Origin: a virus
Lineage: Duplodnaviria > Caudoviricetes
Strand: one strand, 5' to 3'
Length of the DNA: 64,000 nucleotides
IMG/VR virus record: IMGVR_UViG_3300033075_001536
Span: 32,001 to 96,000 of that record
Under the pieces are notes generated by a model that saw nothing but the letters and a program-made list of their open reading frames with translations, did not search any database and was not told where the DNA came from. The translations under genes were made by a program, and so were the position numbers. Positions 1 through 59,979 of the stretch are shown in pieces. Each line of letters opens with the position of its first letter. Within the stretch, counting starts at the first letter, position 1.

Positions 1-1479
1 CATATATCGAATAGTTTGGAATATTGGTTTAATTTCATACTCACTAAATCCATCACGATCACTTTCTACTATTTCAGAAACCTCATATAATGTGCAATCC
101 TTTGAAGTAACATTATTCCATATAAGATTAAATAAAGTTAGCTCTAGTGAATATTTATTTTGATCATCTCTATCAGAAAATATTCTCTTTTCTCCGACTT
201 TGAAATTGTCTAATTTATTTTTCCACTTGGTATCTGATATAATTTCTGGTTTACCACCACTTACTATTTTATTAAATCTTTTCTCATAATACAATTTAGA
301 TATATTTTCACGAACAAACTTTTCAAATTTTGGGTTGGTAATATAGTTGATGATGTCATTTAAGTAAAATTGGTTACATCTTAATAATAAGTTTTTATTC
401 AAAATTTCTTCATCACTATACTCTTTTAACTTTTCTCTAGTGATTTCAGATTTATCCAATAGATTCCATTTTTCTATTTCTTCTTTTGAGAATTGATTTA
501 AATCATTCGGTTTATAGGAATTTTTATTTTTAATAATTTCTTGTTTTGTCCAACCATATTTTAATAAGATAAAAACAGATGCCTTTTGCATGTCAATGGT
601 GTTTTTATTAATGAAGATACTAAGATTTAATCCATACTCAGATAGTAATTTTGATAGATTTTCTTGAGAAACACTACCATCGTTTATATTGTGTGCTGTC
701 TGAAATGGGTCACTATCCGTTCTACTTAGAGCATAGGTTATTCCTATCTTTCTATTCAGATCTTCTCTGTTCAATAAAAACAAAATAAATTGATAGCAAG
801 TTTTATCATAGACATAACTTTTAAAAGTAGCATCATTTTTAATGCACCACGCTGAATCACCAGCTAAGATTCTAATTTCCGAAGCACTATATACTCTAAC
901 TACTAAAACATCCTTTTCTTCTGAGTAATAAATAACATCTGATCCAATTTCTTTACACTTTTTTATAATATCATTTGCTTTTGCATTTGGATCAACCTTT
1001 AGAAAGTTTTTTAATCCTTCTATTAAATCTTTTCTATTTTTATAAGAGGCAATTTTTCTAAAAAATGTAGAACTATCCTTTCGTTTGGATAGTTGACTAA
1101 GTAAATCACTATCCTGTTTAGTTTTTATGAAGCTTTTTTGTAGCTTTGGAAATTCACTGTAAATATGGTGGATACTAGAGTCCAATTTTAACTTCTCTAT
1201 CTCATCAATCACCTCTTCAATAGTATCATATTTAATAAGTGGCTTAGGAAATTTATTTATTTGTGACTGGCTTTTTTGAATAACATCAAAAAATTCTATT
1301 AAGTCTTCAACACTATTATTCTTTTCATATCTAAGATGTGTGAAAAATCCAATATATCCTGGATTCTTTTTTAAAAGCTCTCTTATTTTTATGAAATCTG
1401 GATCAGTTTCAAAAATCGATTTATTTTTTAAAATAGATCTTGCCTTATTAATATCCTCAAATAATTTTATAAATTGCAT
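1..1479 (-). CDS. CTS-like-tagged hypothetical protein with G-x(3)-WCIK motif, runs off the left edge; paralog of 31106..32710
   Basis: Not in ORF track. Read manually from ATG at 1479: MQFIKLFEDINKARSILKNKSIFETDPDFIKIRELL... LAGDSAWCIK; matches MVTKFHLFENLNYARSVLRKKG...DEDFIKIREM...GSPSWCIK; AATATATA just upstream. Confidence 0.85.
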   Translation of the reverse strand, partial: MQFIKLFEDINKARSILKNKSIFETDPDFIKIRELLKKNPGYIGFFTHLRYEKNNSVEDLIEFFDVIQKSQSQINKFPKPLIKYDTIEEVIDEIEKLKLDSSIHHIYSEFPKLQKSFIKTKQDSDLLSQLSKRKDSSTFFRKIASYKNRKDLIEGLKNFLKVDPNAKANDIIKKCKEIGSDVIYYSEEKDVLVVRVYSASEIRILAGDSAWCIKNDATFKSYVYDKTCYQFILFLLNREDLNRKIGITYALSRTDSDPFQTAHNINDGSVSQENLSKLLSEYGLNLSIFINKNTIDMQKASVFILLKYGWTKQEIIKNKNSYKPNDLNQFSKEEIEKWNLLDKSEITREKLKEYSDEEILNKNLLLRCNQFYLNDIINYITNPKFEKFVRENISKLYYEKRFNKIVSGGKPEIISDTKWKNKLDNFKVGEKRIFSDRDDQNKYSLELTLFNLIWNNVTSKDCTLYEVSEIVESDRDGFSEYEIKPIFQTIRYM

Positions 1480-1500
1480 TTGAGTATATATTAAACAAAT

Positions 1501-2163
1501 TTAATCGTTAATATAAGTGAATTTTGGATTGGCTCTAAAACTAATCCCAATACAATCTGTTTTTCTACCTGGGTTGGAATAATACTGTGCTCGACCAACC
1601 ACTAATTTTTCTCCCTCAATTTCTAAGTTATTTATCACATCAGTAATTCTTTGAACTTCGGTAGAATTCCCCCTATATCTTATATCTGAGTCAATTTGTC
1701 CAGATGGGTATTCACCCTCAAATGTTGAATAGGTTCGACTCATGTGAAGATTATAATTTCCACCAACTACTTTCTTAAATCTACTAGAAACAATTCTAAC
1801 ATCATTTCCACGAATCTGATAAAATGATCCCTCTTTGAATCCAATTCTTATTTTTAGATGTAAGTTACTACTATATTCATGAAAATAAGCTGGTAAATTT
1901 GGATATTCTTCTTTAAGTCTATCATAAGCAACTTTAAATTCGTCTATTACCTTTATATTTTCTTCAAATGCTTTAAAATATTGATCTATATTTCCTTCTT
2001 CAGATGGATGTAAACTAACTTCAATAGTAATGACCCCATCTTTTTCATGGAAATATCCCAATTTTTCATCCACCATATCCTGGAATATATTTCTTATCAT
2101 GGACACCATATCCTCAGTAGATGAAGATTCCAAAAATTTTTTTATTTTATTTCTGTTTTCCAA
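1501..2163 (-). CDS. CTS-like-tagged paralog-family protein
   Basis: KIKKFLES N-terminus; IRNIFQDMVDEKLG...YDRLKEEY family motifs. Confidence 0.75.
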   Translation of the reverse strand: MENRNKIKKFLESSSTEDMVSMIRNIFQDMVDEKLGYFHEKDGVITIEVSLHPSEEGNIDQYFKAFEENIKVIDEFKVAYDRLKEEYPNLPAYFHEYSSNLHLKIRIGFKEGSFYQIRGNDVRIVSSRFKKVVGGNYNLHMSRTYSTFEGEYPSGQIDSDIRYRGNSTEVQRITDVINNLEIEGEKLVVGRAQYYSNPGRKTDCIGISFRANPKFTYIND

Positions 2164-2536
2164 AGTAAAGTGTTAAATATTTTTGTGTGAAGTAATCATC
2201 TCCATCATCTGTTGAGAATCCTCCAAATGTCCATCCATCACCAACAATTCTATCTTTTGATTCAATAGAGGTGGTCATTAATTCTGCTAGATTTTCAAAA
2301 TCTTTTTCCAACTCATCATTATCTGAATTACCATAGATAATTTTAATGGATAGAGAGAGGTATGGGGGATGTCCTTTAACATCCGATAAAGTACACTCAA
2401 CTATAATCTCTGTATATCCTAAATCTAAAATGTCTTGTAAATATTCTTCTAGATTTGGAATTTCCTTTAAAGATCTATTTGTTTTATAGTCTTTAAATGT
2501 TAATCGATTAAAATTTTCAAATAGTTTAATTTCCAT
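2147..2536 (-). CDS. CTS-like-tagged paralog-family protein
   Basis: MEIKLFENF; LEEYLQDILDLGY...DRIVGDGW. Confidence 0.75.
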   Translation of the reverse strand: MEIKLFENFNRLTFKDYKTNRSLKEIPNLEEYLQDILDLGYTEIIVECTLSDVKGHPPYLSLSIKIIYGNSDNDELEKDFENLAELMTTSIESKDRIVGDGWTFGGFSTDDGDDYFTQKYLTLYFGKQK

Positions 2537-2542
2537 TAAATC

Positions 2543-2567
2543 TATATATTAAGTATTTTAATATATA
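2543..2567. promoter_or_regulatory. Divergent pair of TAATATATA boxes (putative phage late promoters)
   Basis: tatatatta at 2543-2551 (minus strand) and taatatata at 2559-2567 (plus strand), each 4-6 nt from a start codon; recurs before about 30 genes. Confidence 0.7.
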
Positions 2568-2571
2568 AATT

Positions 2572-3801: not shown

Positions 3802-3805
3802 TAAC

Positions 3806-3852: not shown

Positions 3853-4146
3853 ATGATGTCAAAAACCGAAATGGATGAACTTTTTAAATCAGGTAAGAAA
3901 TTATACTCACCTTTGATTAAATTAGTTTATTTACCAGCTGCTGAAAAAGAGATAATTATATCTGCACCAATACGGACATTTAAAAGAGCTGTAGATAGAA
4001 ATAGAATTAAAAGACTCATTAGAGAATCTATCAGAAAGATGGAAATTGGTAAATATCATCTAGCTATTATCTATATTGGAACTAAAGTGGAATCATTTGA
4101 AAATATAAAAGCTGAATTAGAAAAAATTATTCCTAGAATAAAATGA
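3853..4146 (+). CDS. rnpA: Ribonuclease P protein component (N-terminally short)
   Basis: RNR motif FKRAVDRNRIKRLIRES; LFKSGK; size 97 aa. Confidence 0.9.
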   Translation: MMSKTEMDELFKSGKKLYSPLIKLVYLPAAEKEIIISAPIRTFKRAVDRNRIKRLIRESIRKMEIGKYHLAIIYIGTKVESFENIKAELEKIIPRIK

Positions 4147-4715
4147 AATATTTGAGGAAATTTAATGAAGCAATTATGACTTCTCTTGACAAAATAAAAT
4201 CGGAAATTGATGATGTTTCTTATATTTTAGAAGATGAAAATCTCAATGTGCGCTCTTTTAGAAGGGGCTCAGAATATGTTGTTATTAATATAATAAACCC
4301 CGAATTAAACACCAATGGATTTGTAAATGCTCCAGGATATGTTCCCACCCCAACTAGATGGGATAAACGTGGATACCTCAAAAGAAGTTGGTTAAAATCA
4401 TTAGCCTTTAACGATGCTTTCGTTGAATTTATCGATCGTGTTGATGAAATTTGCAAAAAGAATGAATATGTTATTTTTGTTAATGGGTGTTCAAGTAGAT
4501 TTAAAGGGGATGATGAGATTGTAAAGTATTATAATTTTGATGAAATGTATATTGGTTCAAAAAATAGACCATTTACTCACATTGAAACTTTTATTGATGT
4601 TAAGAAAGCTATTAGAAATGAGCATAGATGGGCATATCCTGGAAAAATCGATAAAGGTATTAAATGGATAAATAAAAATATAGTTTATCCAGCAGCGGAT
4701 CTTATTGGAATTTAG
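4143..4715 (+). CDS. CTS-like-tagged paralog-family protein
   Basis: MKYLRKFNEA; EIDDVSYILEDEN...EFIDRVDEIC. Confidence 0.8.
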   Translation: MKYLRKFNEAIMTSLDKIKSEIDDVSYILEDENLNVRSFRRGSEYVVINIINPELNTNGFVNAPGYVPTPTRWDKRGYLKRSWLKSLAFNDAFVEFIDRVDEICKKNEYVIFVNGCSSRFKGDDEIVKYYNFDEMYIGSKNRPFTHIETFIDVKKAIRNEHRWAYPGKIDKGIKWINKNIVYPAADLIGI

Positions 4716-4724: not shown

Positions 4725-5040
4725 ATGATTGAAAAATATTTAAAATTTTTTGAAAAGTTAGGAGATGGTGAGTTTTATAAATTCTCTAAAACTATTAATG
4801 AGTATAGATATATTTTAGAGGATGAAGGATTTGAGGTTGAAATTATAGACTCATCGAGCTACTAACTTCAATTCGGATGAACTTTTTGAATTTATGGATA
4901 GAATCCAAGGAGATCTTCCTGATTATGAAATTGTTGCTGATCCACCACTGCCAGCTTTTGAAAACGAAATATTTGGATCTCTCTATGTAGATAGTATGAC
5001 TAATAAAAAGTATATTAATGTTTTCTTTAGAAAAAAATAG
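4725..5040 (+). pseudogene. Frameshifted paralog-family gene
   Basis: MIEKYLKFFEK...YILEDEGFEVEIIDSSSY* (stop 4863-4865); family C-half ...SDELFEFMDRIQ...FFRKK* continues in another frame to 5040. Confidence 0.75.
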
Positions 5041-5051: not shown

Positions 5052-5474
5052 ATGATTAAAAAATATTTTCAATTCTTAAAAGAGCAAGATGAATTTGTGG
5101 ATGACTCTATTAATTTAGATATTCCTAAAGAAGAGGAAAAAGAACCCAAAGAAGAAAAGTCATCTTCCAATTTTGAAGAAGTAATTTCTGGAATAAAAGA
5201 ACTTATTGAAGGAACGGTTGAGAAATCTGGTGGAGAATTTGAAACACTTAAAGATTCATTTTTAAAAGATCCAAAAGAAATTAAAATAGAAGGACTCATC
5301 AATGATTCGGATGTCTATGATTTTTATTTAAAATACAGAAATGATATTGATGAGGTTCTAGGTGATATTAATTTTTATGATGAAGTTCCTTCAGAAATGA
5401 ATACATTTGGTCTATATGAATATACCATCAAAGGCACTATGAAAGCTGTTGAGGAATTTGTTAAAAAAATGTAA
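5052..5474 (+). CDS. Acidic CTS-like-tagged hypothetical protein
   Basis: MIKKYFQFLKEQ; AGATATATA upstream. Confidence 0.75.
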   Translation: MIKKYFQFLKEQDEFVDDSINLDIPKEEEKEPKEEKSSSNFEEVISGIKELIEGTVEKSGGEFETLKDSFLKDPKEIKIEGLINDSDVYDFYLKYRNDIDEVLGDINFYDEVPSEMNTFGLYEYTIKGTMKAVEEFVKKM

Positions 5475-5477: not shown

Positions 5478-5915
5478 ATGAAATATTTAACCAAATTTAA
5501 TGAATCTGATTATTTAAAGATAGGAGATGTAAAATCAACTCCAGTGGATGTTTCAAGTGATTGTAAAAAATTTTTAGATAAATATTCTAATAAGTTACGA
5601 GGGTGGAAAAATGCTCTCGAATCTATAAATAATTTATCCACCAAATACCCAACACCAACACTCGATTATAGTTTTTATATTATCAAATCATATGACTGTG
5701 AAGGAAGATATGTTACTGGAAATATTGGTTATGAAAGAGGTGTTAATAAGTCACATGCCAGACTTAGATGTGCTCTTGATCATGGATTTGAGGTATTTGC
5801 AACTGGATTTTATGATGCTGATAAAATAGATATTGATAAAGAAATATCCGGAGCTTTAAAAAATCTAAAAAATGCTCAAAGTAGAGTAGAGAATCTATAT
5901 CGACTAAAAGAATAA
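5478..5915 (+). CDS. CTS-like-tagged hypothetical protein
   Basis: MKYLTKFNES. Confidence 0.75.
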   Translation: MKYLTKFNESDYLKIGDVKSTPVDVSSDCKKFLDKYSNKLRGWKNALESINNLSTKYPTPTLDYSFYIIKSYDCEGRYVTGNIGYERGVNKSHARLRCALDHGFEVFATGFYDADKIDIDKEISGALKNLKNAQSRVENLYRLKE

Positions 5916-6677: not shown

Positions 6678-7166
6678 ATGCGATATATCAAAATGTTTGA
6701 ATCTTTCTCGAAAAAATTTACCGAAAGAATAAGTAATCTTGAAAAAGAGGCTATGGACGATCTAATGGATTATCTCTATGATATAAAAGACGAATTTCCA
6801 GATGTGGATATATCCAAGGACACTTGGGCGAACAATAAGTGCTTTCAAATTGAAATTAAATTTAAAGTATCTGATTTGGAAAAATTTAAAAATCTTTTTC
6901 ACGAAGGCATATTTGATAGAATAAAAGACGATCACATAGGAACCGAAATAATATATAGCGTCAGTTTAGAATGGTATAGCAATGAGTCAAATAGTTGGGG
7001 AAATTCTTTTATGTCTAGTAAGTCTATAAAATTATCAAATCCACTTGATGATTATCCAAACTATTCTATGGATATAAATTCACTATTAAATGCAATGGAT
7101 AAAAATAAAGTGATAGAGACAAAATCATCAACCCCACTTTTCAATATTCAAATACATATTATCTAA
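6678..7166 (+). CDS. CTS-like-tagged paralog-family protein
   Basis: MRYIKMFESF; DDLMDYLYDIKDEF...IFDRIKD. Confidence 0.75.
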   Translation: MRYIKMFESFSKKFTERISNLEKEAMDDLMDYLYDIKDEFPDVDISKDTWANNKCFQIEIKFKVSDLEKFKNLFHEGIFDRIKDDHIGTEIIYSVSLEWYSNESNSWGNSFMSSKSIKLSNPLDDYPNYSMDINSLLNAMDKNKVIETKSSTPLFNIQIHII

Positions 7167-7692: not shown

Positions 7693-10371
7693 ATGGTAAC
7701 TCCATTATATTCATATTTAAAAGAAAACGGCACTTCATTTTATGCTTTTCCTGGTGCATCGGAAGACATTTCAGCTTCCTATCAGAATCAAAATTATAAA
7801 ATGTATTTTTCTAAATACATTCTTTTAAATTTTCCAAAACAGCAATTAGTTCCTGGATCCACTGGATCTTGCAATCCAGTTCATTGGGATTTTGATAATA
7901 CTTCTGGGCTTGGATATGGATTCATTGAATCAAGCTCTTACACCGCACCAGCGACTTTTCAAGATGCTGTGATTGAATCGCTTAGAAATTATGTGGCTAA
8001 TCAAGAGGTTACGATTAGAGATTCTAGAATTAATAATACCGAATTTTATTATAACCCAAATGAACTTGGAACTACTGCCGAAAAAATATTTTTCAAATGG
8101 TGTAAAAAATTAGGACTTATTGACTTTGAACCGGCTATTGGTGGTGCTGTTCAATATTTTGATACACTGGATGAATTTAAAAGAAATAATGAAAATGATG
8201 ATTCTTATTTTCCAGAGTATTTATGGCAAGAAAGAAGAACAACTTCATATGATATTTCTAGTTGGTCTAATCCATCTGGTAATATTCAAGCTAATTTTAT
8301 AACCACTACCAATTTTAGAGAAGGTGATGTTATTACTATTACCGATGTTGTTAATACGGACATCACTACTGATTTGGGAACACATTCAAATGTTAGAGTG
8401 ATTTCGGTCACCACACTTCCGAGTGGAGATCAACATGTTGTTTTAGATGTTCCAGCTTCTATTTTATCTGGAACAGCTTCTGAAGGAACCGCTAAGGCAT
8501 CTTTAAATTACAATCGACTTGTTCAATATGTCGGTGAAGTAAATGGGGTGAGTAATGTAAATGAGTCTAATAAATCATATACTGAAGTTTACGCACATGT
8601 TCCAGATCATTCAGGATTAACTCCAGATATTTTATTTAGAACCATGGTGGATAGTAATTACAAACCAAACATGGTCTTCCCAATTGTCCCATCACAATAT
8701 CAACCAGAAATTATTGGGGCTGAATTATTTAATTCACCAATTGTATTAGCTCCACAAAATTATCCTGGATCTTATTTCGCACAATTCGATGTGAATGATT
8801 TTACCTATGATATTAATAATGGAGACTCAATTAGAAGAAGTGGTGACTACTTTGGAATAAATGGTGATATCAATTCTCCAATTGTAGATGGAAGAACATT
8901 AGACGGAATTTCCATAGATTTTAATACTTCTCACTATGCAAAGATGAATATTCCAAATAGGAATTTAACTAACTTTGATCAATTCAATGCTCTTGAGGTA
9001 GACAATAACCCGCCAAAAGATTTCGAATTTAATGCTATTCTTTGGTACTACACAACTATGGATCCAACAGGAACCATGTCAGAAAATCTATATGGTATAT
9101 CATTTTTGGATAATCCAAATAATAATCCAAAAGAATCTGAAGTTGGGATTGCTTTTCCAAAATTTAATAAATTGGTAGCTAATGGGTCTCAAGATGGAAC
9201 ATCTTATGCATTTGGATTAAATATCAATTTTAATATTGTTTCTGATAACCCGGTAGAAGCGTATAATCCAGAAGCTATTAACTCTTTATTTGGTATGAAC
9301 TTATTTAATGATGCGATGGAGAAACTTTCCAGTATTAATGATACATTTATACAAATGTTGGCAGATAACGCTACACTTGCTCAACAAGTTTCCGGACTAC
9401 AAAGTTTGTTGTATAGTCAAACCGATTTAAACACCATCAACCAAAGAATAAATAATCTAACCTCTTTAATTAATTTATATCAAACAAATCAAATTGTGGA
9501 TTCCGAGTCGGTTGTTGTTAATTATAACGGACAAACATCCCCACCAACTATTCAACTTAGTACGCAAGATCCAAGCTATGTTCAATTAAATTCCATAGCA
9601 ACCTCTAATATGTTTAATATAAATGGAATTATACCATACACTGTAAATGTTCCGGTAAATAAAAATTTCTTAACTTATATAACAAATGATGACCAAGTAT
9701 CATTCGATCTTCCAAATAATGATAAACTAACAATTGTGTTGGATAAGGATTTGTATTATAAGCAAAAGGCAGACTTTACCATCACTTCCTCTGACTTAGC
9801 TACGGAAAATAAAAAGTTAGATATTTATATGATGAGTATTTCGGAAGGAACATCTGTTCCAGTTGAAACGCTATTAATTGGTGATATTGATCTTCCGATA
9901 TTTTTTAATAAAAATACTCAGCAACCAAATTCAGCTAAGACTTGGAATAGTTTTGATTTTAAAATTGATTTTTCTCAAGATATAACATTAAAGTCAAATG
10001 CTATTTTACAATTAAACATTGATGCTCGATTTGATATCTTAACAAACTCAATAAAAGCAGGAGATGCTTTGGTTCTAAATAATTTATTTATTGGGACAAC
10101 TTCTGTATTTAATTTTTCTGGGCAATATGTGGTAGATTCTGTCTCAACTACTCAATCACAAATTAATTTAGATATTTCATCTAATCAAACATTCGTGAAT
10201 TATGGTGCTTCACAATCTTTGCCAATGACTCTACATGGATCATCAACTACTCTACTATCTAATCTTCCGTATATTTCTTTAAATAAAGGATATAAAATTT
10301 CTATCACTAGAATAGATTCTGATTTAGTTGCACTTTCTGATAGATATAATATTCAGATTAGTCACCTATGA
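7693..10371 (+). CDS. Large putative virion structural protein
   Basis: 892 aa, N/S/T-rich beta regions plus central coiled coil; late box upstream; clustered with other structural-like genes. Confidence 0.6.
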   Translation: MVTPLYSYLKENGTSFYAFPGASEDISASYQNQNYKMYFSKYILLNFPKQQLVPGSTGSCNPVHWDFDNTSGLGYGFIESSSYTAPATFQDAVIESLRNYVANQEVTIRDSRINNTEFYYNPNELGTTAEKIFFKWCKKLGLIDFEPAIGGAVQYFDTLDEFKRNNENDDSYFPEYLWQERRTTSYDISSWSNPSGNIQANFITTTNFREGDVITITDVVNTDITTDLGTHSNVRVISVTTLPSGDQHVVLDVPASILSGTASEGTAKASLNYNRLVQYVGEVNGVSNVNESNKSYTEVYAHVPDHSGLTPDILFRTMVDSNYKPNMVFPIVPSQYQPEIIGAELFNSPIVLAPQNYPGSYFAQFDVNDFTYDINNGDSIRRSGDYFGINGDINSPIVDGRTLDGISIDFNTSHYAKMNIPNRNLTNFDQFNALEVDNNPPKDFEFNAILWYYTTMDPTGTMSENLYGISFLDNPNNNPKESEVGIAFPKFNKLVANGSQDGTSYAFGLNINFNIVSDNPVEAYNPEAINSLFGMNLFNDAMEKLSSINDTFIQMLADNATLAQQVSGLQSLLYSQTDLNTINQRINNLTSLINLYQTNQIVDSESVVVNYNGQTSPPTIQLSTQDPSYVQLNSIATSNMFNINGIIPYTVNVPVNKNFLTYITNDDQVSFDLPNNDKLTIVLDKDLYYKQKADFTITSSDLATENKKLDIYMMSISEGTSVPVETLLIGDIDLPIFFNKNTQQPNSAKTWNSFDFKIDFSQDITLKSNAILQLNIDARFDILTNSIKAGDALVLNNLFIGTTSVFNFSGQYVVDSVSTTQSQINLDISSNQTFVNYGASQSLPMTLHGSSTTLLSNLPYISLNKGYKISITRIDSDLVALSDRYNIQISHL

Positions 10372-10742
10372 TCAGTAAATTTGATGAATATGTTTCTCCA
10401 GAAAAAATAATTTCAGAAATAAAAGAAATTTCTTATATTTTGGAAGATGAAGGATTCAATATAAATTATACAGTATCAAAAAATATTTATATAGGATATC
10501 TTTTTATAGTGATATCTAGATATCATAGAATAAATTACAAATTCCAAAAAAATCTCATGGAGTCTGAGTATTGGTTGGAATATATAGACAGATTAAAAGA
10601 AATTTTGGATAGATTTGGATTTTATCCAAGATTACCATGTTTATCGAGATTACACTTCGAAAACCGTCCCATAAATATAACTATTGTGATAGAAAAGTTT
10701 ACTCCAAGACAAAAAAGAAAAATGTTAAATAAAAACAAATGA
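10368..10742 (+). CDS. CTS-like-tagged paralog-family protein
   Basis: MISKFDEY; EIKEISYILEDEGF...EYIDRLKEILDRFGF. Confidence 0.8.
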   Translation: MISKFDEYVSPEKIISEIKEISYILEDEGFNINYTVSKNIYIGYLFIVISRYHRINYKFQKNLMESEYWLEYIDRLKEILDRFGFYPRLPCLSRLHFENRPINITIVIEKFTPRQKRKMLNKNK

Positions 10743-11092
10743 TTTGTAAATTTAACGAATTAAATCTTGAGAACGAAATAAAAGAAATATCTTATATCAT
10801 AGATGATGATTTTGGATATTTAAAAATTTCAAAAGCATATGGTAAGATATACATAACCATTTTGAACAACAGCTCTCCACCATCTAACAGCGCTTGGAAC
10901 CGGAAACCAAAAGTATCTAAATCACTAATTGATAGTGATCAGTATATTGAATTTTATGATAGGTTGAAGGAAATATTCTTTAAATTTAATTACAATTTAT
11001 ATCATCTAAAAGATCATAAGAATATTATCGTCCTTTCACCAATGACTGATATGCAAGTAAAGAGAAAATTAAAAAAGAATTCCAAATTATAG
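10739..11092 (+). CDS. CTS-like-tagged paralog-family protein (tandem with previous)
   Basis: MICKFNEL; EIKEISYIIDDDFG...EFYDRLKEIF. Confidence 0.8.
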   Translation: MICKFNELNLENEIKEISYIIDDDFGYLKISKAYGKIYITILNNSSPPSNSAWNRKPKVSKSLIDSDQYIEFYDRLKEIFFKFNYNLYHLKDHKNIIVLSPMTDMQVKRKLKKNSKL

Positions 11093-14574: not shown

Positions 14575-16212
14575 ATGGATATTTTAAGATTCAAACAGTT
14601 TGAGAAAAAACTTTCTATTTCCGAATTATCTGAACCAGCACCTTCTAATTTTAACGGAAACGGAAATAAAAGAGGTGATGTTTTGATAAAGAAAGTAGAA
14701 GATGGCGATCCTTTAATTATTGGGCCTGTTGGTAATCGAAAATCTGTTATTGTGGATGAGATTAGAGACCCAGAAGGTGTTGTATTGGATAATTTGGATG
14801 GCATGGATGGTGTAAAAGATAATGAGGATAGATACGATCCTAGCCTAGCAACTAACTTTTTTAAAAATGGAAGAGGACACTATATAAATACATTTATTGG
14901 GCAACAGGCCGATGGGACAGATTGTGAATTCACATTAAATAATATTGAAAAAACAACCGATTTCGGATCCTCTGGTCCTGGAAGAAATATAGATAAATGT
15001 GAAGTAATACAAGCTATTTTTATACATCTAAACAGAGTTAATCCACAGATAGCTTTATCTGTTAAAAACGCTGTTCAAATATTTCAACAATTTGTTTTGG
15101 ATACACCAAATTTAACCGACTTCATAAAAACTAATATGGAAATAACTCCAGATATGATTAATGATCTGGATAGTGATTGGTTATATACTTTTTCAGAAAT
15201 TCCTGGTGAGATTGAACATTTATTAAGAGATCATAAAAAGAGCCAATATGTTATTATACATAACAAGTATAATCGACCATCTCCATATAGATCAATAAAA
15301 AATAAAGTTAAGCAGTTTTTACCAGGTACAGAAATTTCAAAATTTTACCCAGGTGATTTAATTGTTGTTTCTGATCATAGACTAGTTATAGATGTTGTGA
15401 ATGGAAATAGAAATGGTGGATTTGGATATTTAATGGGTAAAATAGAAGCAACCCAAAATATAAACGAATTGATTTCTCTTTTAAATAACCTATTTAATGA
15501 AAAGGTAATGTGCTCATTGTCATTAAAGAAATTAAAAGCTGGGCTAGATTATAGTGTTATTATTAATAATGATAGTATTATTGGTAATAATATTCCAGAT
15601 CCAGTTAATTTTGAATTTAATGGGTTTGAAATAAGTAGAGTTCCGGAAAGAGGAAGGTCTTCAAAAGTTTCAACAATATCTAGATATCGTGGTGTTCCAA
15701 GGTATAGAATAATGATATTTAGAGGTGATAAGGGAGGAGATCTAAATGGTGAAGTAGAAGGATCAACTTCTAGACATGGTAAAATATCTTTACAGATTAT
15801 AAATAAGATAATTAGAAGACACTTTCAAGACTTTGGATTACAAACGCAAGATTTTGAATTTGTTAGAAGGAGAGTTGTTTTAAATGATTTAAATAATAAT
15901 CAATTATTAAATCAAATAAACTCTCTTATTGGTGATGTTGCAGAGCTTGTAAATCATGGATTTAATATAGATAGAAATTTATCTGGAAGAGATGATATAT
16001 CTAATAACAGAGATGGACTAATTTCTAAATTACAGTCTTTGGAAATGATTAAATTATTAGCAGATATATCAATGGAAAACAATGAGTGTTTTGATTTAAT
16101 TATTAATGATATTTTTAAATATGCGATGTCAATACAAGTTTGGCATGATCAGAACACCCCACCAAATCGCCAAGGAAATTTATTAACTCCTAAATATTTT
16201 AGGACAGTTTAA
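14575..16212 (+). CDS. CTS-like-tagged large hypothetical protein
   Basis: MDILRFKQFEK; TAATATATA 4 nt before ATG; no recognised domain. Confidence 0.75.
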   Translation: MDILRFKQFEKKLSISELSEPAPSNFNGNGNKRGDVLIKKVEDGDPLIIGPVGNRKSVIVDEIRDPEGVVLDNLDGMDGVKDNEDRYDPSLATNFFKNGRGHYINTFIGQQADGTDCEFTLNNIEKTTDFGSSGPGRNIDKCEVIQAIFIHLNRVNPQIALSVKNAVQIFQQFVLDTPNLTDFIKTNMEITPDMINDLDSDWLYTFSEIPGEIEHLLRDHKKSQYVIIHNKYNRPSPYRSIKNKVKQFLPGTEISKFYPGDLIVVSDHRLVIDVVNGNRNGGFGYLMGKIEATQNINELISLLNNLFNEKVMCSLSLKKLKAGLDYSVIINNDSIIGNNIPDPVNFEFNGFEISRVPERGRSSKVSTISRYRGVPRYRIMIFRGDKGGDLNGEVEGSTSRHGKISLQIINKIIRRHFQDFGLQTQDFEFVRRRVVLNDLNNNQLLNQINSLIGDVAELVNHGFNIDRNLSGRDDISNNRDGLISKLQSLEMIKLLADISMENNECFDLIINDIFKYAMSIQVWHDQNTPPNRQGNLLTPKYFRTV

Positions 16213-16664
16213 AGATTTCTATCTCTATTTATCTGTTCAGACCTCACAATAGCAGTGTGTCCATAATATCCATTATGACAGTTATAAGCAGTAAATTGCA
16301 ATAATCCTTCAGATGTTTCTATGTTTACAAACATAGTTTCTCTTTCTTCAGGACCATCAGTTATCTCATCTAATCTACTAACATTTAAACACTCATCTAC
16401 AATTTTAACACCTATTAATTTTGACCCTATAAAAGATTTATATTCATCATTGGTGAAAAAATATCCAAATTTTTCACAACAGTTTTGATCATTTTCAATC
16501 AAAAGATATATGGTTTGTTTATTGGTGTGAATAGCAAATCCATCATAAGAAGACATACTACCTCTCAAATCTATCTCATCTCTTCCAAACAGCTCCTCTA
16601 TTTCTTCAATAATTTCATCAGAAGAGTTCTCAAATAGTTTAAATTTCTTGATAATTTTAGACAT
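16209..16664 (-). CDS. CTS-like-tagged phage protein with NGYYG motif
   Basis: MSKIIKKFKLFEN; IETSEGLLQFTAYNCHNGYYGH. Confidence 0.7.
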   Translation of the reverse strand: MSKIIKKFKLFENSSDEIIEEIEELFGRDEIDLRGSMSSYDGFAIHTNKQTIYLLIENDQNCCEKFGYFFTNDEYKSFIGSKLIGVKIVDECLNVSRLDEITDGPEERETMFVNIETSEGLLQFTAYNCHNGYYGHTAIVRSEQINRDRNL

Positions 16665-17670: not shown

Positions 17671-17901
17671 ATGGAACATTATATCGCTTTTTATATAACA
17701 TTTATATTTTTTACATTTATTATTTTATTTGATTTATCACCAATTAATATTGTAAAATTTATTTGTAGAGATAAAAATACCACTTTTGGCATTTTGACTT
17801 TTGGTATCCATCAGTATAGAAAATATAAAGAGAAGAAACTTTCTGAAAGAAACACTTTACAATATATTAGGAATAAAAAATTAGAAAAAATTTTAAAATG
17901 A
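17671..17901 (+). CDS. Small membrane-anchored protein with C-terminal tag
   Basis: N-terminal TM helix; ends IRNKKLEKILK. Confidence 0.65.
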   Translation: MEHYIAFYITFIFFTFIILFDLSPINIVKFICRDKNTTFGILTFGIHQYRKYKEKKLSERNTLQYIRNKKLEKILK

Positions 17902-18137
17902 AAGAAAATAATACAATTATTGCTATAAAAAATAGTATAGATTTTTATATGGATAGTGGAAAAAAGATTTTATATTATTATAAATATGATAATTTTAAAG
18001 TTATAAGGACATTTTTTGGAACAGATGAAATATCGATTTTTAACCCGATTTTAAATGAAAAAATATTTGTAGATAGTAAAGATTTTATAACCTTATTCGA
18101 ATATAGAGATCAAAAATTAGAAAATATTCTAAAATGA
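17898..18137 (+). CDS. Small protein with C-terminal tag
   Basis: Ends YRDQKLENILK. Confidence 0.65.
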   Translation: MKENNTIIAIKNSIDFYMDSGKKILYYYKYDNFKVIRTFFGTDEISIFNPILNEKIFVDSKDFITLFEYRDQKLENILK

Positions 18138-18556: not shown

Positions 18557-19097
18557 AGAACAAAAAATGAGTTGGTATGTCATAAAGACACAATCAAACA
18601 AAGAAAGAAGTGTTGTAGAAAAATTAAACCTAGAAATGTCTAGAAGTAGTATTCAAGATAAGGTGGGTCGAATTGTCATTCCAACCGAAAAAGAGGTTCA
18701 GATTAAAGATGGTAAAAGAGTATTTAGAGAGAAAATTACCATGCCTGGATATGTTTTTATACAAACCGGTGCTATTGGTGAATTAACACATATCTTAAAA
18801 AATATAAACGGGACCTCTGGATTTTTAAGAACAAAGGATGGTAACCCACAAACGATGAAAGATATAGATGTTGCTAAAATGTTAAACGAGCAAGAATTAG
18901 TTGATTCTAAAGAGCTTAATTCTTCCTTCATTCTTAATGAAGAGGTTAAAATTATTGACGGGCCTTTTGCATCATTTAAAGGAAATGTTGAATTTGTGGA
19001 TAAAGATAGAAATAAAATAAGGGTCTCGGTTTCTATTTTTGGTAAAAAGACGATGCTTGATTTACACTTACTTCAAGTTGAGAAGGTAGAAAACTAA
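18549..19097 (+). CDS. nusG: Transcription termination/antitermination factor NusG
   Basis: WYVIKTQSNKE; MPGYVFI; KOW motif VKIIDGPFASFKG; VSIFGK. Confidence 0.93.
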   Translation: MVKEQKMSWYVIKTQSNKERSVVEKLNLEMSRSSIQDKVGRIVIPTEKEVQIKDGKRVFREKITMPGYVFIQTGAIGELTHILKNINGTSGFLRTKDGNPQTMKDIDVAKMLNEQELVDSKELNSSFILNEEVKIIDGPFASFKGNVEFVDKDRNKIRVSVSIFGKKTMLDLHLLQVEKVEN

Positions 19098-19098
19098 G

Positions 19099-20276: not shown

Positions 20277-20277
20277 T

Positions 20278-25666: not shown

Positions 25667-25680
25667 TCAGGTTTTTTTTT
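25652..25680 (+). terminator. Possible weak intrinsic terminator
   Basis: ctgat-tta-atcag hairpin followed by T9. Confidence 0.45.
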
Positions 25681-25693
25681 GTGAATATTTTAA

Positions 25694-44494: not shown

Positions 44495-46162
44495 TTATTT
44501 TTTATCCTCTATTTTATAATACCAATCATCATAAAATCCAAAAAAATCATCTCCAGATTTCTTTGCTTTTTTTACCTTAAACTTAACTTCTTTTCCAGAT
44601 GGTAACTTTGCCTCAACATCACGATCTTCTACTTTTTTAAGAGACTCTTTTTCCTCCGTTTTAGATTCGGAAAATCTATCATAAGGTATTTTACTAGTAT
44701 TCTTATATTTATCGGAAAAATGTTTTAGTAAATCTTTTTCATCTTTCTCTAGATCGGACTCTTCTTTTTTAGTAACTTCTTTCTTTTCTCGTCCATATCC
44801 ATAGTATTTTTCATATGGATCATAATATGGACGATCATATGGATTTTCAGCTGATTTCTTAGATTCTGACTTCTTAAGCTTTTGAGCCGCTGCTTCAGCT
44901 CTTTCTTGTATATACCTTTGAAATCTTTCTTGTGAGTAACTGCTATCACCAACAACTACCCTTACTTGCCCATCATTATCAACCATACCTTCTTGTCTAG
45001 AGGACACACCGACTAGTTCACCGTGAATGTTTACATTATCAGTACCAGACTGCTGCCCAGACATAGTCACATTGGCCGGAGTGTTTGTAATAGTTGCAGC
45101 TCCTGTTGGTATATAAACAGATCCTGCAATTTGTCCAAACAATCTACTTGTCTGTCTTCTTGTTGATCTTGGTCGTGATTGTTCATCTTGTAAATCATCA
45201 CCATAATCATCCAAGTCTGGAGTATCACCAAATCCGTAGTTATCTCTTTGCTCCGGCTCCAATCCACCCCAATTTTGTACCAAATAGTGTTGATAACTAA
45301 AATTTTCAGAATTGGCAAAAGTTCCATTTTTTGGATCAAAAAACTTAAAAGTATCGAAATAAGGATAGGTCTTAAATTTGAAATTTTCGAGTTTTAAATA
45401 TAGGTGAAGTCTTATATTTTTCCCATCACGAGTAAAATATTGTTCTGATTTGGATGTTTGTTCAGTTTTTGAAAGGTATCCATTTTTTGATGCCCATTCT
45501 TTAAAAAAATTAACATCGTGATCATACAAGCTATATATCCTGTCCATTACTTTATAACTATTACCATACTTATCCAAAGCATTTTCCCATAAAAGTGCTC
45601 TTGCTCGTAATTTATCATTAGCATCCATGTAGATAAGCATTTTACAATCTTTCGGATTTTTTGCATATATCTCCATGAATTTATTTTTTTCTCGATATCT
45701 CATACAAGAGCTCCAAAGAGTTCCCGAATTATGTCCATTCACACTACCATAGCTGCTTTGATCATAATATTTTAGAATCTCATCACCTTCAATAACTCTT
45801 AACTTAGTTTCATCAGAAGAATAATAAGACTTAATTAAATTGACAAACTCTTCAATTTTTTTATCATTTAATCCGACACGAACACACTGATCAATATTTA
45901 AAATTCGTCTAACAAATCGACCAATTTTCATATTGGTTCTACATTTATTATCTTGATATGGATCTGGGTGTGAAATAAATTTAGATTTTGATTTGGGTAT
46001 ATAAGATATCATATCCAAATCAGCATTTTCCTTTTTAACCCAATCACAATCAGCATCTGGTAAGATATATTCTCCTTGATGCACCAATAGTTGTGATATA
46101 ATATTTGATTGTGTTCTTTCTAAGAACTTAAATAGATCTGGATGTATGTGAATTACTGCCAT
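44495..46162 (-). CDS. SCM/RALLW/MDRIY-family protein with long low-complexity C-terminus
   Basis: LWSSCM; ARALLW; VMDRIY; YPYFDTF; no CTS-like tag; paralog of 23080..24348. Confidence 0.8.
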   Translation of the reverse strand: MAVIHIHPDLFKFLERTQSNIISQLLVHQGEYILPDADCDWVKKENADLDMISYIPKSKSKFISHPDPYQDNKCRTNMKIGRFVRRILNIDQCVRVGLNDKKIEEFVNLIKSYYSSDETKLRVIEGDEILKYYDQSSYGSVNGHNSGTLWSSCMRYREKNKFMEIYAKNPKDCKMLIYMDANDKLRARALLWENALDKYGNSYKVMDRIYSLYDHDVNFFKEWASKNGYLSKTEQTSKSEQYFTRDGKNIRLHLYLKLENFKFKTYPYFDTFKFFDPKNGTFANSENFSYQHYLVQNWGGLEPEQRDNYGFGDTPDLDDYGDDLQDEQSRPRSTRRQTSRLFGQIAGSVYIPTGAATITNTPANVTMSGQQSGTDNVNIHGELVGVSSRQEGMVDNDGQVRVVVGDSSYSQERFQRYIQERAEAAAQKLKKSESKKSAENPYDRPYYDPYEKYYGYGREKKEVTKKEESDLEKDEKDLLKHFSDKYKNTSKIPYDRFSESKTEEKESLKKVEDRDVEAKLPSGKEVKFKVKKAKKSGDDFFGFYDDWYYKIEDKK

Positions 46163-46192: not shown

Positions 46193-46402
46193 ATGAAATT
46201 TATTTTAGAATTCAAAAATTATTATAAAATTGATGATATCGTTTTAATCGAATATTGGTATAATGATATGATTACACCAGTAAGGATTATTGATAAAAAA
46301 GGTAATAAGTTTAAAATTTCTCATAATATTCAAGAATCTAAGATTAAAAATGCTCCAGATGAATTTATTAAACAATCTGACATCATTGATAAAAAAAGAT
46401 AG
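46193..46402 (+). CDS. Small SH3/Tudor-like hypothetical protein with weak CTS-like start
   Basis: MKFILEFKNY; late box upstream. Confidence 0.6.
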   Translation: MKFILEFKNYYKIDDIVLIEYWYNDMITPVRIIDKKGNKFKISHNIQESKIKNAPDEFIKQSDIIDKKR

Positions 46403-49838: not shown

Positions 49839-50921
49839 ATGACTAAGCAAGAATTTTTAGAAAAAGCTAGAGGAAAACATGGGTATAAGTATCAATATCC
49901 GAATTTAAATGATAAAATTTTATCTACCGATGATATAGAAGTAGTATATGAAGGAAAAACATACACACAAAAAGTTGTTAAACATATAATGGGTAGGTGT
50001 CCAGAAAAAAATACTTTAAGGAAATCCACTTCTGAATTTATATCAGAAGCCAAATCTATTTGGGGAGATAGATATGACTACTCACTGGTGGATTATAAAG
50101 GGGCATTAAAAAAGGTAAAAATAATTTTTGAAGGTATTATATTTGAGCAAAAAGCTATATCACATTTACAGGGACAGGCTCCAGAAAAAAATTTAAATCA
50201 GGAAAATTTTATAAGAAAATCAAAAATAAAACATGGTGATAAATATGATTACAGATATACAAAATTCAATTCTGGTGATTCTCCTGTTATGATAGGGTAC
50301 AATGGTGTGTTTTATTTACAAAAACCATATCAACACCTAGTTGGAAATTGCCCAGAAAATTTAAGACTATCAACAAGAAAGACAACGAGTTCTTTTATTA
50401 GAGAATCTATGTTGGTTCATGATTTTAAATATAATTATGACAAAACCGACTATATAAAAAACCAAACCAAAGTCATAATCACTTGCCCTATACACGGTGA
50501 TTTCTCACAAAGACCATTATCACATCTACAAGGATCTGGGTGTCCAAATTGCAATGAATCAATTGGTGAAAAAAAAATTGCCAAATTTTTGAATGAGAAT
50601 AAAATCTTATATGATAGACAATATAAATTTCCAGATTGTAGGAATATATTTGAACTACCGTTCGATTTCTATATCCCATCTATGCGCACTATAATTGAAT
50701 TTGATGGTAAACAACACTATGAGCCAATGGAATTTTTTGGTGGGGTAGAATCATATGAAAGACTGAAAGAAAATGATAAAATAAAAAATAATTACTGTGA
50801 AGAAAATTACATTAATTTAATTCGGATTCGTTATGATCAAATTGAAGATATTCAAAATATTTTATGGGAAAACTTAAAAGTTTTTATAAAAATGGTCTCC
50901 AAAAATAAAAGAATTAATTAG
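49839..50921 (+). CDS. DUF723-repeat plus PD-(D/E)XK putative homing endonuclease
   Basis: Repeated F...A...HGD.YDY; ITCPIHG.F.Q...HL.G.GCP.C; LPFDFY..IEFDG.QH. Confidence 0.85.
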   Translation: MTKQEFLEKARGKHGYKYQYPNLNDKILSTDDIEVVYEGKTYTQKVVKHIMGRCPEKNTLRKSTSEFISEAKSIWGDRYDYSLVDYKGALKKVKIIFEGIIFEQKAISHLQGQAPEKNLNQENFIRKSKIKHGDKYDYRYTKFNSGDSPVMIGYNGVFYLQKPYQHLVGNCPENLRLSTRKTTSSFIRESMLVHDFKYNYDKTDYIKNQTKVIITCPIHGDFSQRPLSHLQGSGCPNCNESIGEKKIAKFLNENKILYDRQYKFPDCRNIFELPFDFYIPSMRTIIEFDGKQHYEPMEFFGGVESYERLKENDKIKNNYCEENYINLIRIRYDQIEDIQNILWENLKVFIKMVSKNKRIN

Positions 50922-51459
50922 ATCCTCTGAAATTAAATTCTTCTTTTGGTAAATTTATATGAAATTTAACTGGTTTGAATATGAAATAGTGTATTCTAAC
51001 CCAAGTTACATCATCTGAATAGGAGGTTGAATAGAAATTATTAAAAAATTGATACCCCATTCCTTCAATTCTATCTTCAACTTCTTCAAGGACTTCTATC
51101 ATCTCATTTTTATGTTTTATATTAAATTCGGTTTCCTCACCAAGAGGTGCTGGAAATTCTCCTCTTTTTTTATACAAACCACTTGATGTAAAATCTCTAT
51201 CTAAAGTAACTACCATAAATTCACCAATTTTTCTAAGGACATATAATTTTTCATTACCAACAGAAGTATCATCAAATAGAAATTCGGTTCCGAGACTTCT
51301 TATAAACCTATCAGTATTGGTGTCTTGTCGTGTACCAGATTCATTAATAAAAGTATATTCAAATTTATATCCAAGATCCATCACTGGTATGAATATATTT
51401 TCAATATCTTCAGTATCAACTTCTTGGCTAAAATTTTCAAACAGAGAAATAAACTTCAT
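50914..51459 (-). CDS. CTS-like-tagged paralog-family protein
   Basis: MKFISLFENF; EDIENIFIPVMDLGY...EDRIEGMGY. Confidence 0.8.
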   Translation of the reverse strand: MKFISLFENFSQEVDTEDIENIFIPVMDLGYKFEYTFINESGTRQDTNTDRFIRSLGTEFLFDDTSVGNEKLYVLRKIGEFMVVTLDRDFTSSGLYKKRGEFPAPLGEETEFNIKHKNEMIEVLEEVEDRIEGMGYQFFNNFYSTSYSDDVTWVRIHYFIFKPVKFHINLPKEEFNFRGSN

Positions 51460-51468: not shown

Positions 51469-51924
51469 TTATTTTTTATAATTGGACCACCAAGTATCAA
51501 AGTCTTGATCACTCTCACCTTCATTATAATCCATACCAGCTTCAAAAGCATCCTGAGCTAACTTTTTGCGATTAATAGTGTAGTTATTTGTATCAAATGA
51601 TATTCTATCAGAATATGGTTCATTTTCTTCCTCTTCATCAAATTGATTATGTCTAACCTCATTCATGGACTCGGTAATAGATCCTTTAAAATAGGATTTT
51701 ACAATATCTACCACATCTTCATCATCGGACGGATAACATAATTCACCAGATTTATAGGTGATTCTACCACTGGAAACTAAATTTTGTAGAATAGATTCTG
51801 ATCCAAATAGATTTTCTTCATCTTGGGAAATTTGAATACAAACCATTTTATCATCTGTTTCAGATTCACTTTTAGTCGAATCAACCTGATTCTCATTCAC
51901 AAATTGTCCATATTTTTTGATCAT
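51469..51924 (-). CDS. Acidic CTS-like-tagged protein
   Basis: MIKKYGQFVNEN; internal ITESMNE. Confidence 0.75.
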   Translation of the reverse strand: MIKKYGQFVNENQVDSTKSESETDDKMVCIQISQDEENLFGSESILQNLVSSGRITYKSGELCYPSDDEDVVDIVKSYFKGSITESMNEVRHNQFDEEEENEPYSDRISFDTNNYTINRKKLAQDAFEAGMDYNEGESDQDFDTWWSNYKK

Positions 51925-57303: not shown

Positions 57304-57313
57304 AAGATAAAAC

Positions 57314-58192: not shown

Positions 58193-58213
58193 TATTATAC
58201 TATATGTTATATC

Positions 58214-58788: not shown

Positions 58789-58789
58789 T

Positions 58790-59022
58790 ATGAAATGCTA
58801 TTGTAAAAAAGTTGGAAAATTTTCAAAGGATCGAATTCTATAATTTTTAATCATGGACAGGAGTATGAATATAGTATAGGTGAACATGAAGAAACAAATA
58901 TTTTGGTATATACAATTCACAATAAAATGGATATTTTACCAGTGGTAGAGTCAAAATTTAGAATTTATTTTGATGATGCTAAGGAAAGAAGAAATAAAAC
59001 ATTAGAAGAGATTTTAAAATAG
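58790..59022 (+). pseudogene. Small gene frameshifted in an A6 run (real lesion or sequencing error), with C-terminal tag
   Basis: One extra A at 58805-58810 gives MKCYCKKSWKIFKG...DDAKERRNKTLEEILK*. Confidence 0.65.
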
Positions 59023-59023
59023 G

Positions 59024-59443
59024 TTATTTAAAATAAAATATAACTTGTTGGTTGGTGTATAAAACATCTATTTGGAATCCTTTTCCAATTTCTTCTAATC
59101 TTTCATAGAACTCCTCAAATTCTTCAAGTTCCATTATTTTATCTAAAGCATAAGAATCTGCTTCTAAATCAGAATCAATATAGTGACTACCTTTAAATAA
59201 ATTGTCCCTTATTTTACTTATAATTGGATTAAAAACTTCAACCGATATCCACAAGTAATTCTTTATATCCTTTCTTATTTCCACTATATGACCTTCGTCT
59301 TGGAGAATGTGTATAATATTTTCAACCTCTGAAATAAGATCATTATTAATAGACTTTCTAGAACTTTTCTTGCTGAACTCATTGGCTGCTTTTGCAAATT
59401 TTTGCATATCATTAAAATTCTCAAACATTTTCAAATATTTCAT
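59024..59443 (-). CDS. CTS-like-tagged paralog-family protein
   Basis: MKYLKMFENF; EVENIIHILQDEG...EFYERLEEIGKGF. Confidence 0.8.
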   Translation of the reverse strand: MKYLKMFENFNDMQKFAKAANEFSKKSSRKSINNDLISEVENIIHILQDEGHIVEIRKDIKNYLWISVEVFNPIISKIRDNLFKGSHYIDSDLEADSYALDKIMELEEFEEFYERLEEIGKGFQIDVLYTNQQVIFYFK

Positions 59444-59472
59444 ACGAAGTATATATTTAAAACAATTTTCAT

Positions 59473-59480
59473 TATATTTG
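59473..59480 (+). promoter_or_regulatory. Bacteroidota -7 element TATATTTG
   Basis: 10 nt upstream of ATG 59491. Confidence 0.55.
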
Positions 59481-59490
59481 TAAAATATAT

Positions 59491-59979
59491 ATGGATGTGA
59501 AAACTTTTACAGATAGAATTGACGAATCGGTTTCTAACAAACCATTCAAACTTGGACTTGACTTCCACGGTGTAGTGGATGCTATACCAAGTTCATTTGC
59601 TTTTCTATCTAATGCTGTTGTTAATGCTGGTGGAGAAGTTCATATTCTAACTGGATCTTCTTGGACAGAGGGACTTACAAAGTATTTAAAAGATAATGGA
59701 ATAAATTGGACACATAGCTTTTCTATTTATGATTATCTAGTTCGATCAGAAGAGCAGGTAATAGGTGAAATTCAGTTTCCTGACGGAACGATTCAAAAGA
59801 AATTTCGGGATGCTGCTTGGGACAATGTCAAAGGTATCTATTGCAGAAAACACGATATATCTCTTCATATTGATGATACTCTAATTTATAATGATCATTT
59901 TTCAACTCCTTTTGCTAGATTATGGACGCACAATAACAAACCAAAGAAAGCTCATAAGGAAAAAAGACATCTGGACTAA
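59491..59979 (+). CDS. HAD-like protein
   Basis: GLDFHGVVD; HILTG; K...C....I.LHIDD. Confidence 0.75.
   Translation: MDVKTFTDRIDESVSNKPFKLGLDFHGVVDAIPSSFAFLSNAVVNAGGEVHILTGSSWTEGLTKYLKDNGINWTHSFSIYDYLVRSEEQVIGEIQFPDGTIQKKFRDAAWDNVKGIYCRKHDISLHIDDTLIYNDHFSTPFARLWTHNNKPKKAHKEKRHLD

Follow-up and report, generated by a model that had tools for sequence, protein, structure and literature searches.

The window analyzed here is a stretch of 64,000 nucleotides, bases 32001-96000 of a 170,678-base virus contig in IMG/VR (27-33% GC). Many of the proteins predicted from it begin with a similar short peptide, which we call the tag. The initial annotation had compared this peptide with the capsid-targeting sequence (CTS) of phage T4 and had listed 28 genes that start with it. 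All 28 start coordinates and N-terminal strings are found in the sequence. A position weight matrix (PWM) was built on the N-terminal 17 residues of the 237 open reading frames (ORFs) on the contig. Its consensus is [KR]-[YH]-[LIF]-[KR]-x-F-[NE]-E, which with the initiator methionine reads M-[KR]-[YH]-[LI]-[KR]-x-F-[NE]-E. A second form, sub-type B, follows the T4-like pattern K-Y-x-x-F-[IVL]-x-E. Graded by the PWM or by the T4-like pattern, 21 of the listed starts are strong, three are moderate (2536, 32710, and 46193), and four are weak (10368, 14575, 33199, and 59491).

The gene at the left end of the window (1-1479, - strand; MQFIKLFED, 841 residues, PWM 9.4) runs off the window's left edge. 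It is a paralogue of the gene at 31106-32710 (-; MVTKFHLFEN, 534 residues, PWM 6.4, moderate) and of an ankyrin-repeat protein. Next to it, an ORF of 220 residues (1501-2163, -) contains the tag-like string ..NKIKKFLES, which scores 9.7 at offset 5; the true start of this ORF is uncertain because it has a TTG start and no ATG. No Pfam family was found for this ORF, nor for those at 2147-2536 (-; MEIKLFENF, 129 residues, PWM 7.6, moderate), 5478-5915 (+; MKYLTKFNES, 145 residues, PWM 14.7), and 14575-16212 (+; MDILRFKQFEK, a weak tag, 545 residues, PWM 5.4). The protein encoded at 16209-16664 (-; MSKIIKKFKLFEN, 151 residues, PWM 12.5) has a DUF7448 domain at residues 25-138, with the tag outside it. 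Tags also begin the proteins at 6678-7166 (+; MRYIKMFESF, 162 residues, PWM 12.5), 28280-29041 (+; MKYLKLFEGF, 253 residues, PWM 13.2), 32741-33196 (+; MKYLKKLNES from a GTG start, 151 residues, PWM 13.7), and 50914-51459 (-; MKFISLFENF, 181 residues, PWM 10.7). The PQ-loop protein at 36642-37511 (-; 289 residues) starts MKYLKSYEEHNEG, its orthologue MRNIKSYKDFANEE; the Pfam PQ-loop match covers residues 204-253, and the protein has one hydrophobic segment. The short ORF at 46193-46402 (+; MKFILEFKNYY, 69 residues, PWM 7.4) is a moderate case. Two weak cases are the 65-residue product of 33199-33396 (+; MNSIYQLMEE, PWM 5.9), which has a helix of the DEG[FY] type described below and lacks a tag, and the 162-residue product of 59491-59979 (+; MDVKTFTDRIDES, PWM 4.3), which is probably untagged.

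Sub-type B tags are found on eight window genes, for four of which an orthologue start is available. These four are 5052-5474 (+; MIKKYFQFLKEQ, 140 residues, PWM 11.9), whose orthologue in the 642-kb uncultured phage LR756502 starts MIKRYSQFIKEA; 27233-27793 (-; MKIVKYKQFVLEN, 186 residues, PWM 9.6; orthologue MKIRKFTEFINEE); 33566-34807 (-; MIKVFKYMEFIKES, 413 residues; orthologue MKKLHRYNSFIKES), a T4-type RNA ligase 1 with the Pfam domain RNA_lig_T4_1 at residues 81-276; and 51469-51924 (-; MIKKYGQFVNEN, 151 residues, PWM 10.5; orthologue MIKKWNQFINES). As the last pair illustrates, the tag pattern is kept between orthologues of the contig and LR756502 while individual residues drift. The other sub-type B genes lie at 23080-24348 (+; MKLTGYNEFILEN, 422 residues), in a family of nine large paralogues, one of which has a DnaJ-type Cys-rich domain; at 27834-28268 (+; MLKYDKFIIEK, 144 residues); at 34812-35225 (-; MKKYIEFTKES, 137 residues, PWM 10.2); and at 35222-36658 (-; MAILNKYKDFIGEK, 478 residues, PWM 8.7), which BLAST groups with the DEG[FY] cluster.

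The protein at 27834-28268 and at least five others in the window belong to one superfamily, named DEG[FY] after a motif in its domain. Five of these others are encoded at 4143-4715 (+; MKYLRKFNEA, 190 residues, PWM 16.1; assigned with a hidden Markov model), 4725-4865 (+; MIEKYLKFFEK, a mini-gene of 46 residues, PWM 14.2), 10368-10742 (+; MISKFDEY, a weak tag, 124 residues, PWM 1.1), 10739-11092 (+; MICKFNEL, 117 residues, PWM 8.5), and 59024-59443 (-; MKYLKMFENF, 139 residues, PWM 13.8).

At a threshold of 8 bits the PWM finds the tag in 63 of the 237 contig ORFs (27%). As controls, it hit 0.6% of windows that start at internal methionines, 0.8% of internal windows chosen at random, and 1.5% of N-termini after shuffling. 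When the PWM was trained solely outside the window, 12 of the 91 window ORFs still passed 8 bits, compared with 0.3% and 1.4% of controls, and 22 passed 6 bits. The same PWM finds the tag in 133 of 994 ORFs of the complete relative LR756502 (control 0.38%), in 0 of 280 in T4, 1 of 298 in PAU, and 5 of 315 in PTm1. PTm1, a phage with 30% GC and a Bacteroidota host, thus has no pervasive tag. Samples of 42 kb from the head regions of LR756500 and Lak-A2 gave no tag at 8 bits, and are too small for judgement. The enrichment, which the initial annotation had proposed to test against shuffled N-termini, is 10- to 40-fold over the three kinds of control and is replicated in LR756502. Its estimate that about a quarter of the genes are tagged is right for the contig, but too high for the complete relative, in which the share is 13-16%. 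A degenerate DNA version of the tag pattern gave at least 136 matches in IMG/VR; among the matches listed, 131 mark the start of an ORF with 40 codons or more, and at these loci the tag is present on 21% of all ORFs.

Codon choice within the motif is no different from that elsewhere in the genome, and K/R and L/I/F interchange freely. For both reasons selection is on the peptide and not on the DNA. A DNA-level cassette or an mRNA motif was rejected on the codon evidence, and composition bias on the shuffle control together with PTm1. His at tag position 3 is enriched 15-fold. Core replication genes and highly expressed structural genes carry no tag.

The tagged proteins had been described as unrelated in their bodies. 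BLAST places the 63 tagged proteins of the contig in 56 groups, and Pfam has no family for most of them. This description has to be narrowed for part of the set: the 25 main window cases amount to some 18 families overall, and seven of them are members of a single hidden superfamily. It is upheld in that the tag occurs on at least ten unrelated folds. The hidden superfamily, DEG[FY], was found with an iterated profile built without the tag and has at least 62 members in the contig and LR756502. Its proteins consist of the tag, a variable linker, a helix ending in D-[DE]-G-[FY], beta strands, and an EFxDR helix, and tandem arrays of them lie at 13-36 kb of LR756502. A word-based homologue search with the protein encoded at 59024-59443 returned only itself and one close copy. 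The body-only DEG[FY] profile, run against 1.84 billion proteins, gave 155 cluster representatives. Met is the first residue in 148 of these, and 93 of the 148 carry the tag at 8 bits; the tagged share is 63-71%. The AlphaFold2 model of the 4143-4715 protein has a mean predicted local distance difference test score of 59.9 and a confident alpha/beta core, and the tag forms a separate short helix (residues 3-11) ahead of this core. A Foldseek search of the PDB with this model gave no match at E <= 0.001. Some DEG[FY] proteins of 740-1050 residues carry five to eight domain copies per chain (representatives P0125, P0157, P0159, and P0220), and these may be cargo polyproteins.

Other carriers, by Pfam, are an AAA_28 ATPase, YoeB, RNA ligase 1, two methyltransferases, an alpha/beta hydrolase, an ankyrin protein, a tRNA-binding domain, DUF7448, and the PQ-loop protein. 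In every carrier with a Pfam assignment the tag lies outside the domain. Five phage orthologues of the AAA_28 ATPase (53-98% identity) are tagged, and its bacterial homologues (31-39%) start differently. Among orthologues of the head-module protein encoded at 222007-222480 of LR756502, tagged forms begin MKHLRKFEEL-NYSTY and untagged forms M-NYSTY, so that the boundary between the two falls at the exact end of the 9-residue tag. Because it lies outside domains, occurs on unrelated folds, is kept between orthologues, and is present or absent at an exact boundary, the tag is, on this comparative evidence, a discrete, portable, and selected module. It has no hydrophobic stretch, and so lacks the core of 7-15 hydrophobic residues behind a basic N-region that marks Sec, Tat, or lipoprotein signal peptides, and membrane-type segments are depleted among tagged proteins (2-4% of them). 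The YoeB toxin domain (residues 36-122) stands behind a tag in the protein encoded at 123317-123691 (+) of the contig. If the tag is removed in the head, tagged YoeB would be a delivered RNase.

The contig is, from its gene content and that of its relative, a fragment of a distant T4-superfamily megaphage, because its DnaK gene matches that of LR756502 at 76.6% DNA identity, one contig terminus falls within a T4 gp23-type capsid gene (only the gene end is present, at 32.3 bits), and LR756502 has about 25 core genes in common with T4. The shared genes include topoisomerase, gp41, UvsX, gp43, gp44, and gp46/47, as well as terminase, sheath, portal, capsid protein, UvsW, and Rnl1. The Gp23 profile scores 95.9 bits in LR756502, where a gp21-like domain adjoins the gp23-like capsid gene. 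Relatives in culture by capsid protein are PAU, PTm1, pT24, and phages of Chryseobacterium and Flavobacterium, with hosts in the Bacteroidota. In PAU and PTm1 the gp21-family protease scores above the Pfam cut-off.

The end of the tag has the form of a protease site. The motif begins at Met1-Lys2, and in 150 of 173 anchored cases its Glu is one of residues 8-12. In tags aligned on this Glu (P1), position P3 is F, I, Y, or L in 77%, and P1' is Ser in 34%, followed in frequency by Asn, Asp, Gly, Glu, and Ala; conservation fades beyond P1'. Proteases of the gp21 type cut after Glu (PMC5694885), and the hydrophobic-x-Glu ending followed by a small or polar residue matches this rule, so that the tag end may be a gp21-type cut site. 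The tags of T4 are propeptides of 10-20 residues that take proteins to the core of the assembling head (PMC5694885; PMC3012670).

The likeness to the T4 CTS that the initial annotation had proposed is found in the cut-site end, in sub-type B, and in the scaffold and capsid proteins, but the majority sub-type, MKYLKKFNE, is only a loose fit to the T4 core Y-Q-E-F-I-A-E. Sub-type B has the very pattern of the T4 sequence MKTYQEFIAE, and the pattern Y-x-x-F-[IVL]-x-E picks up IPII and IPIII in T4. Near Met1, [YFW]xx[FYW][ILVTM]xE occurs in 12 of 237 contig ORFs and 25 of 994 in LR756502. The core of sub-type B recurs in the maturation site of T4 gp23, FGSFLTE-A (residues 59-66), a placement that agrees with the reported propeptide of 65 residues (PMC5694885). 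Like the megaphage tag, the CTS of T4 IPI, IPII, IPIII, and Alt, which gp21 removes, occupies the extreme N-terminal ten or so residues of otherwise unrelated carriers. Both have the core aromatic-x-x-F-[IVL]-x-E with a cut-site-like end after Glu. Both come from phages with a capsid protein of the gp23 type; the prohead protease is gp21 in T4 and a putative gp21-type enzyme in the megaphage lineage. A diverse and fast-changing set is also seen among the internal proteins of T4 (PMC3012670). The differences are ones of scale and form. T4 has a handful of carriers, as against 63 on 171 kb here and 133-157 in LR756502, and the dominant MKYLKKFNE is shifted by one residue from the T4 sequence. 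The megaphage carriers, which are putative cargo, include enzymes, a toxin, and membrane-anchored proteins and are mostly acidic. In the megaphage, the scaffold itself repeats the tag core. In T4 itself (AF158101), gp61.1 (18966-19130; MKTFKEFIKED) and gp61.4 (20112-20369; ..KYVKWIAED) have CTS-like N-termini, and from these they may be unrecognized packaged proteins.

The scaffold repeats lie just upstream of the LR756502 capsid gene, where one gene (225272-227371) joins a gp21-like protease domain with a region resembling a scaffold. This fusion contains about 11 tandem 14-residue repeats, NIxYSEY[IL]AE[NS]LDK, and the repeat core YSEY[ILV]AEN resembles the T4 tag core YQEFIAE. In IMG/VR, 76 of 76 orthologues have such repeats, with 6-11 copies each, as do three further megaphages. 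The fusion holds 8 of the 17 internal tag cores in the LR756502 proteome and is the protein densest in cut-site motifs. We found no published description of a protease-scaffold fusion with these repeats. Of 40 capsid proteins, 34 conserve the motif YAE[FY]H[SQA]INE-N in the propeptide; it aligns near the cut inferred for the PAU capsid protein, for which N-terminal sequencing implies a shortening from 585 to 520 residues (PMC5646251). A complex prediction for a tagged head-module protein and the scaffold-repeat region of the same IMG/VR phage scored 0.00, which weighs neither way.

The Sphingobacterium ("Sphingomonas") phage PAU, a cultured relative by its capsid protein (25.6% identity) with a gp21-family protease, has a comparable tag of like position and length. 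There, 18 of 298 ORFs (6%) begin MK[TS][LI]xx[LF][YF]E, mostly clustered at 100-121 kb in the head module. The carriers include gp142 and gp154, annotated in GenBank as internal capsid proteins, and the scaffold gp152. PAU differs in having fewer, clustered carriers and another tag sequence. BLAST of the bodies of the PAU tagged proteins against the megaphage proteomes gave no hits, and no published description of the PAU tag was found. A further parallel is offered by the phiKZ-like phages. In SPN3US, phiKZ, and 201phi2-1, a protease related to gp21 cuts many proteins of the inner head after Glu, and prohead targeting is the presumed role of the propeptides (PMC5694885). In SPN3US, eight of about 50 head proteins are processed, and one ejection protein has a membrane helix directly after its propeptide, a precedent for a tag followed by a helix (PMC5694885). 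Processing of inner-head proteins after Glu and a targeting role are what we propose for our case as well; the phiKZ-like propeptides differ in being mostly 80-160 residues long, with an A/S-x-E cut motif and not one shared short tag (PMC5694885).

We favor, with moderate confidence, the reading that the tag is a T4-type CTS joined to a prohead-protease cleavage site. The signal would be carried by a portable N-terminal helix of 9-12 residues, of either the M-[KR]-[YH]-[LI]-[KR]-x-F-[NE]-E or the K-Y-x-x-F-[IVL]-x-E form, whose end, hydrophobic-x-Glu before Ser, Asn, or Ala, would be the cleavage site. The tag would draw its carrier into the scaffolding core of the assembling head, and it may do so by resembling the scaffold repeat unit YSEY[ILV]AEN. 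A gp21-type protease would then cut after the tag Glu, and the mature protein would remain in the head and exit with the DNA. For the tagged proteins, we infer core binding, cleavage, packaging, and injection by analogy with T4, and by the same analogy the protein cargo of this phage is probably unusually large. Head capacity is not limiting, because one copy each of the 157 tagged LR756502 proteins amounts to 3.4 MDa, compared with 418 MDa of DNA. In its widest form, the proposal is that megaphages of the clade load far more than 100 different proteins (13-27% of genes) into the head by means of a tag that copies the scaffold repeat. We put this forward tentatively, as somewhat doubtful. In that case, the cargo may comprise the YoeB RNase, RNA ligase, methyltransferases, hydrolases, and a large, fast-diversifying family.

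Several observations count against a T4-like loading signal. T4 IPII and IPIII are basic. The tagged proteins are mostly acidic (median pI 5.4-5.8), and many resemble ordinary cytoplasmic enzymes. A few tags precede a membrane helix, and one is on the PQ-loop protein. Tagged genes are dispersed across the genome and are not grouped with head genes. The labels "internal capsid protein" in PAU are GenBank annotation with no basis stated in the record. The scale, 13-27% of ORFs, is to our knowledge far beyond that of any known phage. The search for a gp21-like protease was successful in part: the Peptidase_S77 (gp21-family) match in LR756502 scores 22.7 bits, below the Pfam cut-off of 27, and a PF03420 profile search of the 170,678-base contig found no protease gene.

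The cut-site form of the tag end would also suit a substrate of the gp21-type protease that is no loading signal at all. Cleavage would then activate or inactivate carriers such as YoeB late in infection, with no packaging or injection. The cut site is a credible one, YoeB has an N-terminal extension of 35 residues, and enzymes with cytoplasmic jobs are numerous among the carriers. However, conservation extends over all 9-12 residues from Met1, beyond the three residues of a cut site, and the tagged PAU proteins are annotated as capsid-internal. The T4 protease, moreover, works on core and shell proteins inside the prohead (PMC5694885). We regard a pure protease switch as unlikely.

A sorting signal for another destination, be it a DnaK/DnaJ system of the phage, the membrane, or a phage-made compartment, is in our estimate rather improbable. 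DnaK, DnaJ, and the nine-paralogue family with its DnaJ-type Cys-rich domain are indeed phage-encoded, and some tags precede a membrane helix. Hsp70-binding peptides have a basic-hydrophobic pattern, which the tag resembles. Such a destination, however, leaves both the tag core in the scaffold repeats and capsid propeptide and the tag on the PAU head-module proteins unexplained, and no result here ties the tag to chaperones.

The abundance of DEG[FY] proteins, with at least 62 members and tandem arrays in two genomes and 155 cluster representatives in public data (63-71% tagged), raises the further possibility that the shared N-terminus is functionless and was inherited through one expanding multigene family or a recombination cassette. 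This is very improbable and largely excluded. The tag is found on at least ten unrelated Pfam folds, some captured from bacteria; the linker between tag and DEG[FY] domain varies from about 5 to 45 residues; DNA conservation is no higher than codon usage predicts; and orthologues keep the pattern while individual residues drift. Least probable of all, and likewise largely excluded, is a role in translation. On that view, either early codons that are AT-rich and unstructured or the nascent peptide itself would help initiation on mRNAs almost without leaders, the host making no use of Shine-Dalgarno sequences. The tag codons are AT-rich and a TATATA box stands 4-7 nt before ATG in many genes, but a composition-keeping shuffle abolishes the signal (1.4-1.5% vs 13-27%), synonymous codons and K/R and L/I exchanges are free, His is enriched at position 3, highly expressed structural and core replication genes are untagged, and PTm1, with the same GC content and host phylum, has no tag.

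The T4 tag itself is textbook knowledge. In the literature on huge phages we found no description of a short shared tag on 13-27% of genes that is mirrored in the scaffold. If the loading signal is real, sequence alone could reveal the "first-minute" proteome that an uncultured giant phage injects. If it is T4-like, the tagged genes would be a list of candidate host-takeover and anti-defense factors, mostly of unassigned family, and packaged cargo could expand from a few proteins to a substantial part of all genes. The likeness of the tag to the scaffold repeat suggests a specific way, open to testing, in which capsid targeting may work. In practice, such a short natural peptide might be used to load foreign proteins into very large capsids.

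The tagged genes had also been said to lie mostly behind a TATATA box. This overstates the case: the box stands just upstream of only about 43% of tagged genes and of 33% of untagged ones. It ends 4-7 nt before the start codon in about one-third of genes, for example 2536 (-), 2572 (+), 6678 (+), and 28280 (+), a spacing that suggests leaderless or nearly leaderless mRNAs. In LR756502, 19-28 nt separate the box from the portal, protease, and capsid genes. Because replication and structural genes are both preceded by the box, it gives no timing information.

Phage-encoded DnaK and DnaJ lie at 29094-30992 (-) of the window and in the region of 23218-24264 (-) and 25264-25704 (-) of the contig. 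A neighboring ORF is, by its N-terminus, a putative GrpE gene. The nine large paralogues, one with the DnaJ-type Cys-rich domain and several tagged, include the genes at 23080-24348 (+) and 44495-46162 (-) of the window. Finally, some small proteins end in ..[KQ]KL[EK][KNED]ILK, with the stop codon overlapping the next ATG, seemingly a second, C-terminal shared motif. Their genes lie at 17671-17901 (+) and 17898-18137 (+) of the window and at 25000-25254 (-) and 142961-143242 (-) of the contig.

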